This document shows, piece after piece, positions 54-6,852 of a stretch of DNA of 7,031 nt; within the stretch, counting starts at the first letter, position 1, and each line of letters starts with the position of its first letter. The DNA is taken from positions 4,232 to 11,262 of the forward strand of contig CAZMCX010000018.1 of NCBI GenBank assembly GCA_964565125.1. The letters are read 5' to 3'. Origin of the DNA: an uncultured archaeon (GTDB taxonomy: Archaea > Iainarchaeota > Iainarchaeia > Iainarchaeales > 0-14-0-20-30-16). A program made the position numbers and the translations under genes. Under the pieces are notes generated by a model. It did no database searches and was not told the DNA's origin. It saw nothing but the letters and a program-made list of their open reading frames with translations.

Positions 54-79
54 AAAAAAGAATAAGGATAAACCTTATT
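54..79 (-). terminator. putative lemA terminator: 7-bp hairpin followed by a T6 tract
   Basis: Perfect inverted repeat AATAAGG (61-67) / CCTTATT (73-79) with a 5-nt loop, overlapping the lemA stop codon (81..79). On the minus strand it is followed by TTTTTT (59..54). The stem is AT-rich and weak; the oligo-T alone fits archaeal termination. Confidence 0.35.
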
Positions 80-630
80 CAGAATTTCACTTTTACATTT
101 TGTCTTTCTTCTGTTGTTGCTTCAAAATATGTTTGTTTACTTTTTCCAAACAACCCAGCAAATACATTTCCAGGGAATGTCTCAATTATTGTGTTGTAGA
201 ACAAAATTGAATCATTGTAAAACTGTCTTGTGTAAGCAATCTTTGATTCTATATCCGACAATTCTCTTTGTAAATCCAAGAAGTTTGTGTTTGCTTTCAA
301 ATCTGGATAATTCTCTGCCAAAGCAAATATTGATTTCAAAGCATTTGACATCATATCGCTTGCCTTCATTTTTGTCTCAAAAGAACCTGATGCCATCATT
401 TCTTTTCTTGCTTTAGTTATATCTGCAAAAACTTCTTTTTCGTGTTTAGCATATCCTTTAACTGTTTCAATCAAGTTAGGAATCAAGTCATTTCTCTTCT
501 TTAGCTGAACATCTATCTGAGAAAATGCGTTTTCAATTCTATTGCAAAGAACAACAATTCTATTGTAATAATAGATTAGAATTATTATCAGCAATGCAAC
601 AATACCAAGTATAAGCCACAACCACCACAT
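79..630 (-). CDS. lemA: LemA family membrane protein
   Basis: N-terminal TM helix (WWLWLILGIVALLIIILIYYY) followed by the typical LemA core: NRIENAFSQIDVQLKKRNDLIPNLIETVKGYAKHEKEVF, then AENYPDLKANTNFLDLQRELSDIESKIAYTRQFYNDSILFYN. The ORF-track GTG start (639) lies inside an AGGTGA Shine-Dalgarno (641..636). The ATG at 630 sits 5 nt downstream of it, so I call 79..630. Confidence 0.9.
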   Translation of the reverse strand: MWWLWLILGIVALLIIILIYYYNRIVVLCNRIENAFSQIDVQLKKRNDLIPNLIETVKGYAKHEKEVFADITKARKEMMASGSFETKMKASDMMSNALKSIFALAENYPDLKANTNFLDLQRELSDIESKIAYTRQFYNDSILFYNTIIETFPGNVFAGLFGKSKQTYFEATTEERQNVKVKF

Positions 631-639
631 TACAATCAC

Positions 640-2376: not shown

Positions 2377-3564
2377 TTATTTTATTAAAAATAATTTATC
2401 TTTTATTCTTGTCCTATCTTTCAATTTAAGACCTACTTTTTCCCCTTTCTTTCCAATCTTTATTGCTTTTCCGTCTTTTTGGATTGAAGTAATTTTCTGC
2501 CTAAAGAAAGTAGTCTTCCCCTCCGCTTGAAGTTCATCTCCAATCCTTACTTCATTTTGTAACTTTAGCTCCGCAACACCTATTTTTACATAATAATTAG
2601 AAACATTACCCAAATAGATTTTGCTTTCGGTTTCTAAAGATGCACCTTGTGTGTGTATACCTTCTTTTCCGGGTGTTGAAAAATAAAATCCCGATGTAAA
2701 GCCCCGATTATAGACAGTACCCAATTCTTTCAGATATGCTTTCTTTTTCTTTTCAGTAAATTTTTTCTCGGCAATATCTTTCAGAGCGGATTTGTAAACT
2801 TTAGCAGTAACATAAACATATTCTGCTGGCTTTGTCCGACCTTCAATCTTCAGTGCTACTGGCCCAAGCCCAACTATTTTATCCAAAAAGCCCATTGTAC
2901 ACAGATCTTTTGAACTAAAGATCGTGTTTCCAACAACATCTAAGTTCTTATCACTTTCTTTCATATAAAATGTCCTACGGCAAACCTGGGTGCATTCTCC
3001 GTTATTTGCACTTTTATCAAAACAATTCAAACTCAAGAAGCATCGCCCAGAAATAGAAACACACATACTCCCGTGGCAAAAAACTTCAATCCCGACTTTT
3101 GTTTTTTTCTTTAACTCTTTTATGTTCTCAATAGAAAGTTCTCTTGCCAAAACAACTCTTTCAACCCCAAACATTTTTTCAATCTGTTCTACGGCTAAGC
3201 TATTACTTATAGACATTTGAGTGCTTACATGTATTGGCAACTTTCTTGCTTTTGCGAGTTTCATTACCGCAAGATCAGAACAAATTATTGCATCTACTTT
3301 TGCCTTCTTTGCTTCTGTCAAAATTTTTCCTACTTTGCCAAGCTCGTTGTCATAAACAATTGAGTTCAAAGTCAGATATGCTTTCATTTTGCTCTTATGG
3401 CAAAAATCAACTACTTTTTTTAATTCAGATAATTCAAAATTTTTTGCAAAGGCACGCAAATTAAAGTCTTTAAGCCCAAAATACACCGCATCAGCCTTAG
3501 CTCTTTTTGCGGCTTGCAAACAAGGCCAATCTCCAACACCCACAAGAACTTCTATTTTTTTCAT
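2377..3564 (-). CDS. U32 family protein (peptidase U32 / Fe-S dependent hydroxylase family)
   Basis: The N-terminus MKKIEVLVGVGDWPCLQAAKRAKADAVYFG is typical of U32. EVFCHGSMCVSISGRCFLS (aa 160-178, nt 3031-3087) matches the U32 signature E-x-F-x-H-G-[SA]-[LIVM]-C-x4-G-x-C-x-[LIVM]-S as I recall it. Further Cys residues lie at 181, 191 and 195. A C-terminal beta-barrel-like tail is present (IGDELQAEGKTTFFRQKITSIQKDGKAIK). GGAG (3575..3572) lies 7 nt upstream of the ATG. Confidence 0.9.
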   Translation of the reverse strand: MKKIEVLVGVGDWPCLQAAKRAKADAVYFGLKDFNLRAFAKNFELSELKKVVDFCHKSKMKAYLTLNSIVYDNELGKVGKILTEAKKAKVDAIICSDLAVMKLAKARKLPIHVSTQMSISNSLAVEQIEKMFGVERVVLARELSIENIKELKKKTKVGIEVFCHGSMCVSISGRCFLSLNCFDKSANNGECTQVCRRTFYMKESDKNLDVVGNTIFSSKDLCTMGFLDKIVGLGPVALKIEGRTKPAEYVYVTAKVYKSALKDIAEKKFTEKKKKAYLKELGTVYNRGFTSGFYFSTPGKEGIHTQGASLETESKIYLGNVSNYYVKIGVAELKLQNEVRIGDELQAEGKTTFFRQKITSIQKDGKAIKIGKKGEKVGLKLKDRTRIKDKLFLIK

Positions 3565-3684
3565 AATTTGTCTCCAGTTAATATTCTAAATCCAGAAGTG
3601 TATTTATTAGTTTCCAAAAATAATAAATCAAATACCTTTTTATACTATACTACCTTATTTTATAAGTAGTTAAGAGGTGGTGCT
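3565..3684. promoter_or_regulatory. divergent promoter and leader region between the U32 gene (-) and the CBS gene (+)
   Basis: Minus strand: TAATAAATA (3609..3601) is about 30 nt upstream of a short leader carrying GGAG. Plus strand: TTTTTATA (3637-3644) and TTTTATAA (3658-3665) precede a strong SD, GAGGTG (3674-3679), 5 nt before the ATG at 3685. Confidence 0.4.
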
Positions 3685-4740
3685 ATGGACTACAAAAACC
3701 TTGTTGAAAAAAACATCTATTTTGTTGAACCAGACGAGTTTTTATCTAAAATAATAACTAAACTAAAAAACGAAAAAGCAGTATTTGTAAAAGACAAAAC
3801 CAGGTTTTATGGGGCAATTTCAAAAAAGAGCTTTATGTTATTAGGGGCAGACCTCTCAAAAATAAAGGTAAAAAACATTGCAAAAAGTGTTCCAGAACTA
3901 AACAAAAAAACTACTCATCAGGCAATGGTGGAAGCATTTGTTGAATCTAATTTAGAAAAACTACCATATTTTGAAAACAAAGACATTATTGGATACATTT
4001 CAAGAAACAAAGTTTTAGAAAACATAGTCTTACCAGAACTAAATGTTACCGTAGAAGAGGTAATGTCAAAAAATATTATTTTCATAAATATAAATGATAA
4101 CATAGCACAAGTTTTGGCATTATTTAAAGAGCATGGAATAAAAAAATTAGTTGCTCTAGATAATGGAGAATTAGCTGGAGTTATAACAATCACAAACATT
4201 TTCAATTATTTTGTAAGCGGAGATAGAATAAATTTAGACAACTTAAGAAACACAAAAGTAAAAAATGTAATGAAAGAAAATATAATTTCAATGGGGCCAA
4301 ACAAGCACATATCAGATGCAATAAAAAAACTAACTGCTGGAAAAACTTCCTCATTAGTTGTACACGAAAACAGAGACATAAAAGGAATTTTAACAAAAAC
4401 AGATATCCTAGAAAAATATTTAGCAACACAAAAGAAACAAAACTTTTCAGTTCAAATAACCTCAAAATTAGATAAACTTCCTACTGATATAATTAACAAG
4501 AAAGTAGAACAGTTAAGTAAATTCTTCAGAGATGACGAAGAGATTCACATCTTTGTACATTTAACACTAGGAAACGAGAAATACAAAGGGTCTCCATTAG
4601 TTCATTGTAGATTGAGAATTGTAAGCCCCAGAAATAGTGAAAACATTTCTGTAGAAGGCTGGGGCCTAGATCAAGCAATTGAGCTTGCAATACAAAAAGT
4701 AAAAAGAAGAATAGTAAAAGAAAGGGACACTTTTTATTAA
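3685..4740 (+). CDS. CBS domain protein (four CBS motifs, two Bateman pairs) with a C-terminal HPF/RaiA-like domain
   Basis: Four CBS-like units at about aa 2-55, 60-114, 121-176 and 190-247. Example: VEEVMSKNIIFININDNIAQVLALFKEHGIKKLVALDNGELAGVITITNIF. The C-terminal aa 253-346 show a beta-alpha-beta-beta-beta-alpha pattern resembling HPF/YfiA. A strong SD lies upstream. Confidence 0.85.
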   Translation: MDYKNLVEKNIYFVEPDEFLSKIITKLKNEKAVFVKDKTRFYGAISKKSFMLLGADLSKIKVKNIAKSVPELNKKTTHQAMVEAFVESNLEKLPYFENKDIIGYISRNKVLENIVLPELNVTVEEVMSKNIIFININDNIAQVLALFKEHGIKKLVALDNGELAGVITITNIFNYFVSGDRINLDNLRNTKVKNVMKENIISMGPNKHISDAIKKLTAGKTSSLVVHENRDIKGILTKTDILEKYLATQKKQNFSVQITSKLDKLPTDIINKKVEQLSKFFRDDEEIHIFVHLTLGNEKYKGSPLVHCRLRIVSPRNSENISVEGWGLDQAIELAIQKVKRRIVKERDTFY

Positions 4741-4760
4741 CCCTTTTTTCCTTATTTTTA
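4741..4760 (+). terminator. oligo-T termination signals after the CBS gene
   Basis: T6 (4744-4749) and T5 (4755-4759) follow directly after the TAA stop at 4738-4740. Confidence 0.4.
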
Positions 4761-4845: not shown

Positions 4846-6273
4846 TTACATATTAGATAAAGTTGGTCTTAACATAATTCTTTGTGGGCTTGAGTTCCCA
4901 ATTTTTAGAACAATATCATTAGGATCAATTACATTAATCTGGGCAGACTTATATTTCTGCAAATTATCATTTAGGTCTGCAGCATCTGTTGCAGAGATTG
5001 CAAAATAACAATTAAAAGAAAGCAAAGAGTTTGTTATTTCATTTTGAATAGAGTTTGTTGACTTAGGACAAAATTTCCATCCATCAGTCAAAACAACACA
5101 GACATTATCTACAGATCCTAACAGGCTTAAAATATTCTGAACTATCAATGCTTTTTCTACATCATTTCCAGTTATTGTAATCAAGGTAATTTTTCCAATT
5201 TTATTGGCCACAACTTTCTGAACACTTATTACATCTACCTTTCCGACAAATAAATTAGGATACATTAGATTCAAAGTCTGTGCCATTCTTTTTGCAAGGT
5301 AAATATCATATTCTTTTAACTGTTCATCAGGGCTCACTTTCTGGATTGCTGAAATTAGGTCTGTTATTTTTTCTGGATTGGATTCATATGCCCTCTTAAA
5401 AATTTCTTTATATTCTTTTACGATTCCAAATAATTCACAAAAACTATCAATAGAAATAAGTGATAAATCAACATGCAAATCAGAATTTTCAGAGCCATCA
5501 TACATCAAGTTCTCTATTGGAAATCCTGTTGGTTCTGAATTTGAGTTAAAAGCTTTTACTTCTTTGGGGTGCGGGTTCGCAGACTTAAGGCCAGAAAAAA
5601 TATTCTCAAAATCAAATACAATTACAGGTATTGCACTTAATGAAAACTCTTCTATAAAATCATAGAGCATCTTTTTTTGATTTTCTTTTGCCCCAAATAT
5701 CATTGTTTTTCTAAATGCGTCTAATTCATCAGATGAAAACTCTTCGGAAGATTTATATTTCCCAAAAGAAATCATATGCCCAAAGTTAAGCCTTACATCG
5801 TCTATTTTTTGTAATTCTTCTGGCCTCCTTAAAGTTTTAAAAATATTTAAAGGGTTTATGAAAAACATATTTTGTATTTCTTTACTTGATTCATGCAAAT
5901 CCGTTATTTTTATGTCATAAGTATCTGCAATATCTAAAACTATTTTTCTGGTTTTCGCCAACATTTGTATTTGTTTAGTTATCTCTCGATCCATTTCAAC
6001 TTTACCAACATCAATAATTGTAGAAGGCACAGTTAAACAGAAAAACTTTCTAGTACTTTTTGAATTATGCATTAAGTATAGCATATTGTCTTTGGGCAAA
6101 GTTTCTGCAAATGATTCTAAATCTCCATCTGCAGATCCAACATAAACAACATTTAAAACAAGAGATTTTTTATCAGAACTATATAGTTCGGACAAGATAA
6201 AACTATCTAAAATAGACACTTTAAGATCATGTTGGTCATAGATTCCTTGAAATAATACTGCCCACTCTGCCAT
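4846..6273 (-). CDS. hypothetical protein; HerA/FtsK-superfamily (DUF87-like) fold suspected, with degenerate Walker A/B (putative pseudo-ATPase)
   Basis: Long clean ORF. Three segments line up by eye with the HerA P-loop, Walker B and Arg-finger/QRP blocks but lack the catalytic residues: MIFGAKENQKKMLYDFIEEFSLSAIPVIVFDFENIFSGL, VCVVLTDGWKFCP and FAISATDAADLNDNL. The ORF-track start is a GTG at 6282. I prefer the ATG at 6273, which lies 27 nt downstream of the start of TTTATATA (6300..6293) with no SD, i.e. leaderless-like. Confidence 0.7.
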   Translation of the reverse strand: MAEWAVLFQGIYDQHDLKVSILDSFILSELYSSDKKSLVLNVVYVGSADGDLESFAETLPKDNMLYLMHNSKSTRKFFCLTVPSTIIDVGKVEMDREITKQIQMLAKTRKIVLDIADTYDIKITDLHESSKEIQNMFFINPLNIFKTLRRPEELQKIDDVRLNFGHMISFGKYKSSEEFSSDELDAFRKTMIFGAKENQKKMLYDFIEEFSLSAIPVIVFDFENIFSGLKSANPHPKEVKAFNSNSEPTGFPIENLMYDGSENSDLHVDLSLISIDSFCELFGIVKEYKEIFKRAYESNPEKITDLISAIQKVSPDEQLKEYDIYLAKRMAQTLNLMYPNLFVGKVDVISVQKVVANKIGKITLITITGNDVEKALIVQNILSLLGSVDNVCVVLTDGWKFCPKSTNSIQNEITNSLLSFNCYFAISATDAADLNDNLQKYKSAQINVIDPNDIVLKIGNSSPQRIMLRPTLSNM

Positions 6274-6282
6274 ACAATTCAC

Positions 6283-6345: not shown

Positions 6346-6348
6346 GTG

Positions 6349-6852
6349 ATGTTTATGACTCCAAAAGAAAGAAAGGTAGACCATTTATCAGGACAAAATA
6401 AACCACATAGTACTGGCTATAACCCAAAAAATCCACAAAATCATAACAGGGCCTGGCAACAATACGCAAGTACAAAAAATAAAGGACCAACATTAGGTGA
6501 AAAAATTAAAAGGCTAACTGCATATTTTGAAAAAAAAAGGATTGCAAGAATGAGGCCTGAAGAAAGAGAATTATTTTCAGCATTAACAAGATCAAAAGAA
6601 AGATATACCGATTTACAAAGAATAGTTAAAAAAATTAAGGTAGAATATGCAAGAGAAATTACCGCTTGGAGAAGAAAAAGACAAGCAAAAGGTTCAGATT
6701 TTACTGAGGCAGACAGACAAATGGAAGAACAAAGCAAAAAACAATGGAAAGACTGGCTAGAAAGACACGAAGATGCCTTGCCACAAATAAAGCAGGATTA
6801 CAACACCGCATTAAACCTTTGGAAAGGGCGTAAACTTCTGAGAAAAGCCTAG
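6349..6852 (+). CDS. hypothetical small, highly basic, Trp-containing protein (about 165 aa)
   Basis: Uninterrupted ORF with non-random composition. By hand count, 41 of 165 residues from the M at 6355 are Lys+Arg, and there are 5 Trp. Helical heptad-like stretches occur, e.g. RLTAYFEKKRIARMRPEERELFSALTRSKERYTDLQRIVKKIKVEYAREITAWRRKRQ. Start is ambiguous: GTG 6346, ATG 6349 or ATG 6355. A T-rich tract follows the TAG stop. Confidence 0.6.
   Translation: MFMTPKERKVDHLSGQNKPHSTGYNPKNPQNHNRAWQQYASTKNKGPTLGEKIKRLTAYFEKKRIARMRPEERELFSALTRSKERYTDLQRIVKKIKVEYAREITAWRRKRQAKGSDFTEADRQMEEQSKKQWKDWLERHEDALPQIKQDYNTALNLWKGRKLLRKA

Follow-up and report, generated by a model that had tools for sequence, protein, structure and literature searches.

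A compact protein of the HibA/AHA type, probably a ribosome hibernation factor, in an archaeon of the Iainarchaeota

The gene at 3685-4740 and its surroundings

The window (the whole stretch of DNA that was analysed, 7,031 nucleotides long) carries an open reading frame that runs from an ATG to a TAA stop codon and encodes 351 amino acids, just as an earlier note on this DNA had it. The product is identical to GenBank PIU02902.1, which is annotated as a "hypothetical protein" in a MAG of Candidatus Diapherotrites (Iainarchaeota, DPANN), and this identity bears out the guess that the host is a DPANN-type archaeon. An orthologue with 93% identity lies on a 101-kb Candidatus Iainarchaeum contig on which the neighbours are conserved; both attributions place the gene in an archaeal genome. 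The features are as follows.

~3640-3665: A/T-rich, TATA-like stretches in the 120-nt divergent intergenic region
3674..3679, + strand: GAGGTG, a Shine-Dalgarno-like motif 5 nt upstream of the ATG
3685..4740, + strand: probable hibA/AHA-family gene (ATG 3685, stop TAA 4738-4740, 351 aa)
3685..4038, + strand: CBS1 and CBS2, the first Bateman pair (aa 1-118); divergent, Pfam matches of the single motifs weak or absent, fold present in the model
4039..4218, + strand: CBS3 (aa 119-178), canonical motif G165-V-I-T-I-T-N171; Pfam CBS E 4.3e-12
4219..4254, + strand: CBS3-CBS4 linker GDRINLDNLRNT (aa 179-190), at the position of the HibA "PTC loop" or AHA "loop 3"
4255..4431, + strand: CBS4 (aa 191-249), canonical motif G234-I-L-T-K-T-D240; Pfam CBS E 6.4e-10
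4441..4722, + strand: HPF/RaiA-like domain (PF02482, profile matches, AF2, Foldseek, omega 0.017)
4570..4596, + strand: β2-β3 hairpin G296-N-E-K-Y-K-G-S-P304, assigned by mapping the contact list of PMC13324472 through the alignment
4723..4737, + strand: short C-terminal tail RDTFY (aa 347-351), from length comparison at the R341 anchor
4744..4759, + strand: two oligo-T runs (4744-4749 and 4755-4759) directly after the stop codon

The Shine-Dalgarno-like and TATA-like elements were read from the sequence itself; the oligo-T runs are compatible with an archaeal oligo-T terminator, for which they are candidates. Around the gene lie LemA, an MBL hydrolase, a divergent U32-family gene and unknown ORFs; none of them provided a functional link. 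The PADLOC defence models gave no match to the 351-residue protein.

A CBS tetrad and an HPF/RaiA-like domain

Four CBS motifs followed by an HPF/RaiA-like tail: this reading of the protein is confirmed in both its parts, with matches far stronger than chance. A motif scan finds four G-h-h-[S/T] signatures (aa 43, 103, 165 and 234) spaced by about 60 residues, the whole protein matches Pfam CBS with E 8.4e-28, and its AlphaFold2 model (pLDDT 82.9) contains four β-α-β-β-α units, that is, two Bateman pairs. Taken one motif at a time, CBS3 and CBS4 pass the Pfam test, CBS1 is weak (E 0.027) and CBS2 alone gives no Pfam CBS match. The model superposes on CBS tetrads across 260-290 columns (9znf_4, for example, with TM 0.80 on the target), and its Foldseek matches are the CBS tetrads of the ribosome factors SriA-D and Dri, and AMPK-gamma. 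HibA entries do not figure among these whole-model matches, where CBS tetrads dominate; the structure library's release cut-off in April 2026 is a possible cause.

The ribose-binding Asp/Asn is kept only in CBS3 (N171) and CBS4 (D240), the corresponding residues of CBS1 and CBS2 being S49 and K109. This agrees with HibA and AHA, whose nucleotide site lies where CBS3 and CBS4 meet (PMC13324472, PMC12934967), and CBS3 and CBS4 together are likely to form an adenine-nucleotide site.

The C-terminal domain matches Pfam Ribosomal_S30AE (PF02482, gathering cut-off 23.7 bits) with 28.4 bits in the context of the whole protein (E 2.9e-6) and with 31.1 bits on its own (E 4e-7). Its predicted topology (AF2) is E254-260, H267-280, E287-300, E303-313, E318-326, H328-345. 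Because the full-length Foldseek output was dominated by CBS tetrads, a separate AF2 model of the domain was built (pLDDT 86.8): its best 25 matches in the PDB are all HPF, RaiA, YfiA or pY structures (8uu7_w with TM 0.79/0.81, rmsd 1.8 Å). Profile comparison of the domain leads to 9sr9_H (2.5e-20) and 9l96_a (1.1e-16), and then to bacterial HPF (4v8h_AX, 0.0018; 2rql, 0.004). The E. coli HPF sequence given in the earlier note agrees with the aligned PDB chains; the C-terminal peptide that it quoted is present and ends one residue later than was given (aa 253-347, not 253-346). That note had also named two ways in which its idea might fail, namely a tail with no S30AE profile match and some other fold, or a tail absent or unconserved in orthologues: the profile match is significant, the fold is HPF-like, and every orthologue has the tail in highly conserved form. 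Topology and Foldseek rule out an ACT/ferredoxin-like fold for aa 250-351. Matches of the domain model to PelC were rejected (TM 0.3-0.47, against 0.6-0.8 for HPF), and weak Pfam matches to CGI-121 (19 bits, cut-off 25), DUF6968 (13-16 bits, cut-off 27) and SAM_1, all sub-threshold and overlapping the CBS/HPF regions, are taken as chance.

How close is this domain to its bacterial and plastid counterparts (HPF/RaiA, YfiA, pY; PF02482, TIGR00741)? Fold and topology are shared (TM 0.6-0.8), sequence kinship is detectable (the Pfam match above cut-off; profile E 0.002-0.004 to E. coli HPF), and the binding site, by analogy, is presumably the same A/P-site channel of the 30S subunit. The NCBIfam HPF equivalog TIGR00741 scores 18.9 bits (E 0.0016) and does not reach its cut-off of 40.9, which, as sequences go, makes the domain a relative and not a member of the bacterial equivalog. 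Unlike bacterial HPF, it is not standalone but lies behind a CBS tetrad of about 250 residues, it is without the dimerisation domain of long HPF, and its β2-β3 region is longer and of archaeal type. No RMF-type 100S-forming partner or dimerisation domain is evident.

The CBS tetrad likewise has kin that lack the other module. SriA-D and ARC-A/P (Methanosarcina, Methanolobus; PDB 9ZNF/9ZNG/9ZNI) and Dri (Pyrobaculum; PDB 9E7F/9E6Q) are archaeal hibernation factors that consist of CBS tetrads only. In structure they match the N-terminal module best (9znf_4, E 1e-18, TM 0.80); they sit on the ribosome, adenylate sensing has been proposed for them, and ATP releases ARC. They are, however, without any HPF/RaiA domain, their ribosome sites and orientations differ, and Dri has two CBS tetrads. 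Both phylogenomic papers find these factors and HibA to be largely mutually exclusive phyletically. Membership of this CBS-only group was rejected: the fold of aa 1-250 fits, but an HPF domain is present. AMPK gamma of eukaryotes shares the CBS-tetrad fold (Foldseek E ~1e-15) and has nucleotide sites corresponding to the CBS3/4 pair, but belongs to a heterotrimeric kinase, lacks a ribosome-binding domain and is only 12-15% identical.

Kinship with HibA and AHA, and two missing segments

The combination of the two modules is not a new kind of system: the architecture, ribosome-bound structures, nucleotide binding and phylogeny were published in 2025-2026. HibA (P. abyssi PAB0961; PDB 9SR9-9SRF, 9T7H; Madru et al., Nat Commun 2026, PMC13324472; preprint October 2025) and AHA (Haloferax volcanii HVO_2384; Souza et al., bioRxiv 2026, PMC12934967) are one and the same archaeal hibernation factor, validated by cryo-EM and genetics and present in about 47% of archaeal genomes. 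Two statements of the earlier note, that the architecture was uncharacterised and that HPF/RaiA domains are essentially bacterial or plastid, have thus been overtaken. By cryo-EM, members of the family fill the mRNA path and the three tRNA sites (A, P and E) of the ribosome; they inhibit in vitro translation, and a deletion mutant recovers with delay and has fewer 70S ribosomes (PMC13324472; for AHA, PMC12934967). The CBS module alone does not inhibit in vitro translation (Fig. 6a source data, PMC13324472).

Full-length homology connects the protein at 3685-4740 to this family. Its closest solved relative is P. abyssi HibA (9SR9 chain H; E 1.6e-27 over aa 53-346, with 28.6% identity over 294 aligned positions), followed by a second ribosome-bound CBS protein, 9L96_a (E 7.9e-25). 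(A literature search on the PDB code 9L96 returned nothing relevant; the Methanolobus ARC preprint describes CBS-only factors and not this protein.) These two matches support the suggestion that a fourfold CBS module joined to an HPF/RaiA-type 30S binder serves as a hibernation factor. A separate observation, counted against the assignment, is that the sequence hardly reveals CBS1 and CBS2.

The complete architecture is kept in orthologues at 93-36% identity. Against the 93% orthologue, dN/dS is 0.047 overall, 0.017 in the HPF domain and 0.068 in the CBS module: strong purifying selection acts on both domains. An exhaustive search that took the C-terminal domain as query located it at the C-terminal end of proteins of 350-396 residues and also in standalone proteins of 93-124 residues, which is the pattern described for HibA and for "HPF/RaiA-like" proteins. 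(A technical note: a word-indexed search with the single sequence yielded only 5 relatives; more required profile searches.) The DPANN mostly carry the standalone form (PMC13324472), so full-length versions may be less typical there; the genome taxonomy list in the HibA source data includes 36 Iainarchaeia genomes.

Much of what is distinctive in HibA/AHA is retained. The β2-β3 hairpin is the counterpart of the archaeal-specific insertion of HibA, and its E298-K299-Y300-K301 align with E323-K324-F325-R326, which contact uS12 and the decoding bases G530/A1492 (E. coli numbering; PMC13324472 Supplementary Data 1). The family consensus is hKEKFRGxPL, and the decoding-centre hairpin is conserved, with EKFRG in HibA and EKYKG here. 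Further decoding-centre contacts of HibA align with identical residues (R336 with R311, Q355 with Q330, R366 with R341); of the 42 contact residues mapped in the C-domain, only 16 are identical or similar. In common with HibA/AHA, too, are the restriction of canonical nucleotide motifs to CBS3 and CBS4 and the archaeal host.

Two segments are missing. One is the PTC loop, a highlighted mechanistic feature and not a published definition of the family; it was defined in PMC13324472 and is mechanistically central both there and in PMC12934967. At its position, other family members have 7-9 residues more than the linker GDRINLDNLRNT, from which the conserved GEK(I)P motif is absent; P. abyssi E201, K202, I203 and P205 are deleted, and of the residues through which the PTC loop of P. 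abyssi HibA makes its contacts, five are gone. Measured from anchor to anchor, the loop segment has 25 residues here, as it does throughout the clade (14 members), against 32-34 in 77 and 57-58 in 2 other full-length homologues; it falls short of P. abyssi HibA by 8 residues, and of 9L96_a and haloarchaeal-type members by about 33. The linker itself is almost invariant among close orthologues. The other missing segment is the C-terminal tail that reaches the platform and the mRNA exit. In P. abyssi HibA (residues 373-386) it contacts h23/h24, uS7, uS11 and eS28 (PMC13324472); here the protein stops five residues past the last aligned helix position and 11 HibA tail contacts fall beyond its end. 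Counted from the R341 anchor, the tail has 8-11 residues in the clade and 18-31 in other family members (7-20 shorter). Short loop and short tail alike are common to 14/14 clade members.

Lesser differences are size (351 residues, against 392 and ~406 in HibA/AHA), a β1-α1 insertion 3 residues shorter, an overall identity of ~29% and a host that is DPANN (Iainarchaeota); this protein, furthermore, is known from sequence and predicted structure. The real departures from HibA are the shorter CBS3-CBS4 loop without GEK and the shorter C-terminal tail; the product of 3685-4740 is otherwise an ordinary, somewhat shortened HibA/AHA member from a DPANN archaeon. With its short PTC loop and missing platform tail, it is likely to make fewer 50S/PTC and platform contacts and to rely mainly on the HPF core.

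What a compact HibA may do

The preferred reading, to which we give a probability of roughly 0.85, is that the gene encodes an archaeal ribosome hibernation factor of the HibA/AHA family in a compact, clade-specific form. The domain architecture, homology, fold, conservation and purifying selection set out above carry it. On the other side stand the missing PTC loop and tail, the small share of C-domain contacts retained, the TIGR00741 score below its cut-off and the prevalence of the standalone form in DPANN. Ribosome binding, translation inhibition and stationary-phase protection are known only for HibA of P. abyssi and T. barophilus and AHA of Hfx. volcanii (PMC13324472, PMC12934967), and we infer the ribosome binding, nucleotide binding and physiological role of the compact protein by analogy with these. 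On the model of the P. abyssi HibA and Hfx. volcanii AHA cryo-EM structures, the HPF/RaiA-like domain would wedge into the mRNA/tRNA channel of the 30S subunit, across the A and P sites, with the conserved E-K-Y-K hairpin set against uS12 and the decoding bases; it would be the anchoring and inhibitory part. The CBS tetrad would lie on the 50S side, over the tRNA sites, where it may help to hold the idle 70S ribosome together and shield it from degradation.

As a pair, CBS3 and CBS4 probably bind adenine nucleotides, as HibA does with a preference for AMP (Kd for P. abyssi HibA: AMP 12 µM, ADP 65 µM, ATP 113 µM; that is, AMP > ADP > ATP; PMC13324472), and this might provide a link to the energy state of the cell. 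The "nucleotide-gated" action proposed in the earlier note goes beyond the data: AMP and ATP did not change HibA-ribosome binding in vitro (PMC13324472), and the "sensor" step is on that account unproven, even for characterised HibA.

If the PTC insertion and the platform contacts are gone, is this perhaps a divergent HibA relative, partly decayed or repurposed: essentially a 30S-only blocker of the HPF type, its CBS tetrad employed elsewhere (in regulation, dimerisation or sequestration of a partner) and not covering the 50S sites? The loss of GEK in a loop deletion of 7-9 residues, together with the short tail, in every one of the 14 clade members speaks for it, as do the five deleted PTC-loop contacts and the 11 tail contacts past the end of the protein; contacts of the HibA CBS-module surface are poorly conserved, HibA interacts with replication and recombination proteins, and DPANN often retain the HPF-like domain alone (PMC13324472). 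Yet selection on the CBS module is strongly purifying (omega 0.068), the short linker GDRINLDNLRNT is itself almost invariant, which argues for a retained and specific function, and the two other 50S positions of HibA, at uL5 and the L1 stalk, require no PTC loop (PMC13324472). We regard decay or repurposing as unlikely. Much less likely still, and largely refuted, is a generic CBS regulator (a transcription factor like HhpR, or a metabolic sensor) with a superficially HPF-like C-terminal domain that does not bind ribosomes. JGI names some relatives "predicted transcriptional regulator", and there are weak matches to NCBIfam HhpR (E 4.9e-7, 29 bits), to DUF6968 and to PelC-like folds; but HhpR (NF053603) scores 29.2 bits against a cut-off of 520, DUF6968 and PelC fall as short of their marks as noted above (13-16 bits vs 27; TM 0.3-0.47 vs 0.6-0.8 for HPF), and the homology to proteins seen on ribosomes by cryo-EM is full-length. 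The matches to HhpR, CbpB, PrdR and other NCBIfam models, all far under their curated cut-offs, were set aside as generic CBS similarity.

Within the HibA/AHA reading there is room for a more tentative proposal. The 14 sequences of the Iainarchaeota-type clade may constitute a distinct "mini-HibA" that has lost the GEK loop and the platform tail, has kept the GDRINLDNLRNT linker, and might silence ribosomes without plugging the peptidyl-transferase centre; it is the loss of loop and tail alongside an almost invariant short linker that suggests PTC-independent silencing. Such a protein could use the uL5 or L1-stalk positions only, or make a new contact through the linker. Were this so, it would be a naturally occurring separation-of-function variant, with which the parts played by the PTC loop and by AMP sensing in archaeal hibernation could be tested.

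A "hypothetical" or "CBS domain-containing" protein of a DPANN MAG thus becomes a predicted ribosome hibernation factor, and at least some Iainarchaeota retain the full two-module HibA and not just an HPF-like domain on its own, the form reported to be typical of DPANN. As a natural deletion variant, the compact form could help to work out which HibA contacts are necessary. For small-genome, host-dependent archaea under long starvation, the preservation of ribosomes is plausibly a key trait.

A member of the HibA/AHA family

By the published definition of the family, and judging by its sequence, the window protein is a member of the HibA/AHA family of archaeal hibernation factors and should work alike. 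Its best full-length match among all PDB sequences (E 1.6e-27, 28.6% identity; aa 53-346 aligned with residues 60-371) is 9SR9 chain H, which bears the depositors' label 'Dehydrogenase' and is Pyrococcus abyssi HibA (PMC13324472). HibA (Madru et al., Nat Commun 2026; preprint October 2025), whose family is found in ~47% of archaeal genomes, consists of four CBS domains followed by a C-terminal HPF/RaiA-like domain (PMC13324472); AHA of Haloferax volcanii is an independent description of the same family (PMC12934967). The second-best solved homologue, a 406-aa 'CBS domain-containing protein' (chain a of 9L96, 9L98, 9L9C and 9L9V; E 7.9e-25), has the same CBS plus HPF-like architecture; a literature search for these four codes found no citing paper. 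The remark in the earlier note that such an architecture was uncharacterised is outdated by the publication of HibA (PMC13324472) and AHA (PMC12934967). Other systems share one module: bacterial HPF/RaiA proteins are related but differ in architecture (against the NCBIfam HPF equivalog the window protein scores 18.9 bits, below the cut-off of 40.9), while the archaeal hibernation factors Sri, ARC and Dri, and also AMPK-gamma, have a similar CBS module yet no HPF domain.

The four CBS motifs proposed from the sequence are borne out: G-h-h-[S/T] signatures recur four times at a spacing of ~60 aa (aa 43, 103, 165 and 234), the whole protein matches Pfam CBS at E 8.4e-28, and its AlphaFold2 model (pLDDT 82.9, from a 10-sequence alignment) contains four beta-alpha-beta-beta-alpha units. 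CBS3 (E 4e-12) and CBS4 (E 6e-10) are the sole motifs to pass Pfam CBS individually, CBS1 being marginal (E 0.027) and CBS2 yielding no detected match; the ribose-binding Asp/Asn of the motif is likewise retained only in CBS3 (N171) and CBS4 (D240). Foldseek aligns ~aa 1-270 with entire CBS tetrads, the top match being a Methanosarcina Sri protein bound to the ribosome (9znf_4; E 1e-18, TM 0.80 on target), followed by MJ1225, AMPK-gamma and Dri.

The C-terminal domain is HPF/RaiA-like, as the earlier note had it (the peptide quoted there is present in the protein, but spans aa 253-347, ending one residue beyond the 346 assigned to it). Both the whole protein (28.4 bits) and aa 249-351 taken separately (31.1 bits) exceed the gathering cut-off of Pfam Ribosomal_S30AE (PF02482; 23.7 bits). 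The first matches of a domain profile built from 26 sequences are two archaeal ribosome-bound proteins (9sr9_H, 2.5e-20; 9l96_a, 1.1e-16), and E. coli HPF ranks after them (4v8h_AX, 0.0018; 2rql, 0.004). Modelled separately, the domain (pLDDT 86.8) shows the element order E-H-E-E-E-H; its best 25 PDB matches are all (25/25) HPF, RaiA/YfiA, protein Y or plastid pY (8uu7_w, for example: TM 0.79/0.81, rmsd 1.8 A). Score, profile, topology and structural matches together exclude an ACT/ferredoxin-like fold, which had been named as the alternative.

Host, conservation and gene neighbourhood

GenBank PIU02902.1 ('hypothetical protein COT55_01055', from a Candidatus Diapherotrites archaeon MAG) matches the window protein at 100% identity, and an orthologue with 93% identity is found on a 101-kb contig of Candidatus Iainarchaeum among neighbours identical in kind; the guess at a DPANN-type host was therefore right. 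DPANN are reported to carry mostly a standalone HPF/RaiA-like domain (PMC13324472). Both modules are kept in orthologues down to 36% identity, and comparison with the 93% orthologue gives a dN/dS of 0.047 overall (CBS module 0.068, HPF domain 0.017), so the C-terminal domain is neither lost nor unconserved among orthologues. Exhaustive HMMER search with this domain alone yielded 24 cluster representatives, either 350-396-aa proteins with the match C-terminal or standalone proteins of 93-124 aa: two size classes that mirror the published HibA and 'HPF/RaiA-like' classes (PMC13324472).

Features of the window
79-639, -, LemA family protein (E 2e-59)
730-1383, +, metallo-beta-lactamase-fold hydrolase (E 4e-28)
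1388-2368, +, 326-aa ORF, inside a ~1 kb segment (1375-2376)
2377-3564, -, Peptidase_U32 family protein, 395 aa (E 2e-71)
3685-4740, +, hibA-like ORF, 351 aa (ATG to TAA)
4846-6282, -, 478-aa ORF of unknown family
6346-6852, +, Lys/Arg/Glu-rich ORF, 168 aa
6929-7003, +, tRNA-Gln, anticodon TTG (ARAGORN and Rfam, 62.9 bits)

The hibA-like gene, in a region of 30% G+C, is flanked by the divergent U32-family gene and the convergent 478-aa ORF; a putative GAGGTG signal 5 nt 5' of its ATG and candidate oligo-T runs 3' of its stop codon can be read from the sequence. The divergent arrangement is kept in two related contigs, L001 and L002, as are the tRNA-Gln and the 478-aa ORF (478 aa in L001, ~70% nt identity in L002), which has no significant match in Pfam, NCBIfam, PHROGs or PADLOC. 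The best NCBIfam similarities of the U32 protein, TrhP (tRNA U34 hydroxylase) and UbiU, are both far under cut-off, and nothing found for this neighbour ties it functionally to hibernation. The LemA and hydrolase genes are syntenic in L001, which also keeps the 168-aa ORF (no family assigned; its only match is a sub-threshold AbiEii, E 0.0045) and has an additional 192-aa ORF between it and the tRNA-Gln. The segment 1375-2376, between the hydrolase and U32-family genes, is missing from L001 and L002, where the flanking genes abut; L001 is 84-90% identical in nucleotide sequence on both sides of it. It looks like a strain-specific insertion, and its 326-aa ORF has no family in Pfam, NCBIfam, PHROG or PADLOC.

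Ribosome contacts and nucleotides

The C-domain of HibA occupies the 30S mRNA/tRNA channel, and its CBS module takes three 50S positions (PTC, uL5 and L1 stalk); HibA inhibits translation in vitro, an effect not seen with the isolated CBS module (Fig. 6a source data), and Thermococcus barophilus lacking hibA has smaller 70S pools and delayed recovery (PMC13324472). A loss-of-viability phenotype is reported for AHA (PMC12934967). When the P. abyssi contact list (Supplementary Data 1, PMC13324472) is mapped onto the window protein by pairwise alignment, the hairpin E323-K324-F325-R326, which touches uS12 and decoding bases (PMC13324472), is conserved as E298-K299-Y300-K301, and so are the rRNA-contacting residues R336 (R311), Q355 (Q330) and R366 (R341); identical or similar residues occupy 16/42 mapped C-domain contacts, many other positions being different. 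With the ribose-binding residues of CBS3/CBS4, these contacts make it most likely, by homology, that the HPF-like domain would block the decoding center sterically, as HPF does, while the CBS tetrad would cover the 50S tRNA sites and probably bind adenylates.

Both HibA and AHA bind AMP and ATP at CBS3/CBS4 (PMC13324472, PMC12934967), AHA holding two AMP molecules between these domains (PMC12934967). HibA prefers AMP (12 uM) to ADP (65 uM) and ATP (113 uM), and its ribosome complexes are unchanged by AMP or ATP (PMC13324472). Stabilization of loop 3 (the CBS3-CBS4 linker) by AMP is only a hypothesis of AHA's authors (PMC12934967); the CBS-only ARC factors are the sole case in which ATP-triggered release is reported (ARC preprint).

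A compact loop and tail

Two anchor-to-anchor segments were measured in 93 full-length homologues with an HPF-like domain, a sample biased by the search seeds. From CBS3 to CBS4 (window aa 172-196) there are 25 residues in the window clade (14 sequences), 32-34 in 77 other homologues and 57-58 in 2 haloarchaeal-type proteins; the C-terminal tail from the R341 anchor comprises 8-11 residues in the same clade (14 sequences) and 18-31 in the others. Missing from the loop, among other residues, is GEK(I)P, a conserved motif common to HibA and Dri that touches the A loop, the A2602-equivalent and uL16 (PMC13324472); the missing tail segment is the one that in P. abyssi contacts h23/h24, uS7, uS11 and eS28. 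The shortened linker GDRINLDNLRNT is not simply decaying, because it is near-invariant across close orthologues. The corresponding segment of the two haloarchaeal-type homologues (P0118 and P0119, 405-406 aa) is Gly/Arg-rich and more than twice (>2x) as long as that of the window clade, so the family spans a wide range of PTC-loop lengths. New here are the assignment of the 'hypothetical protein' PIU02902.1 to HibA/AHA, a full-length HibA in an Iainarchaeote, and a variant of HibA with compact loop and tail.
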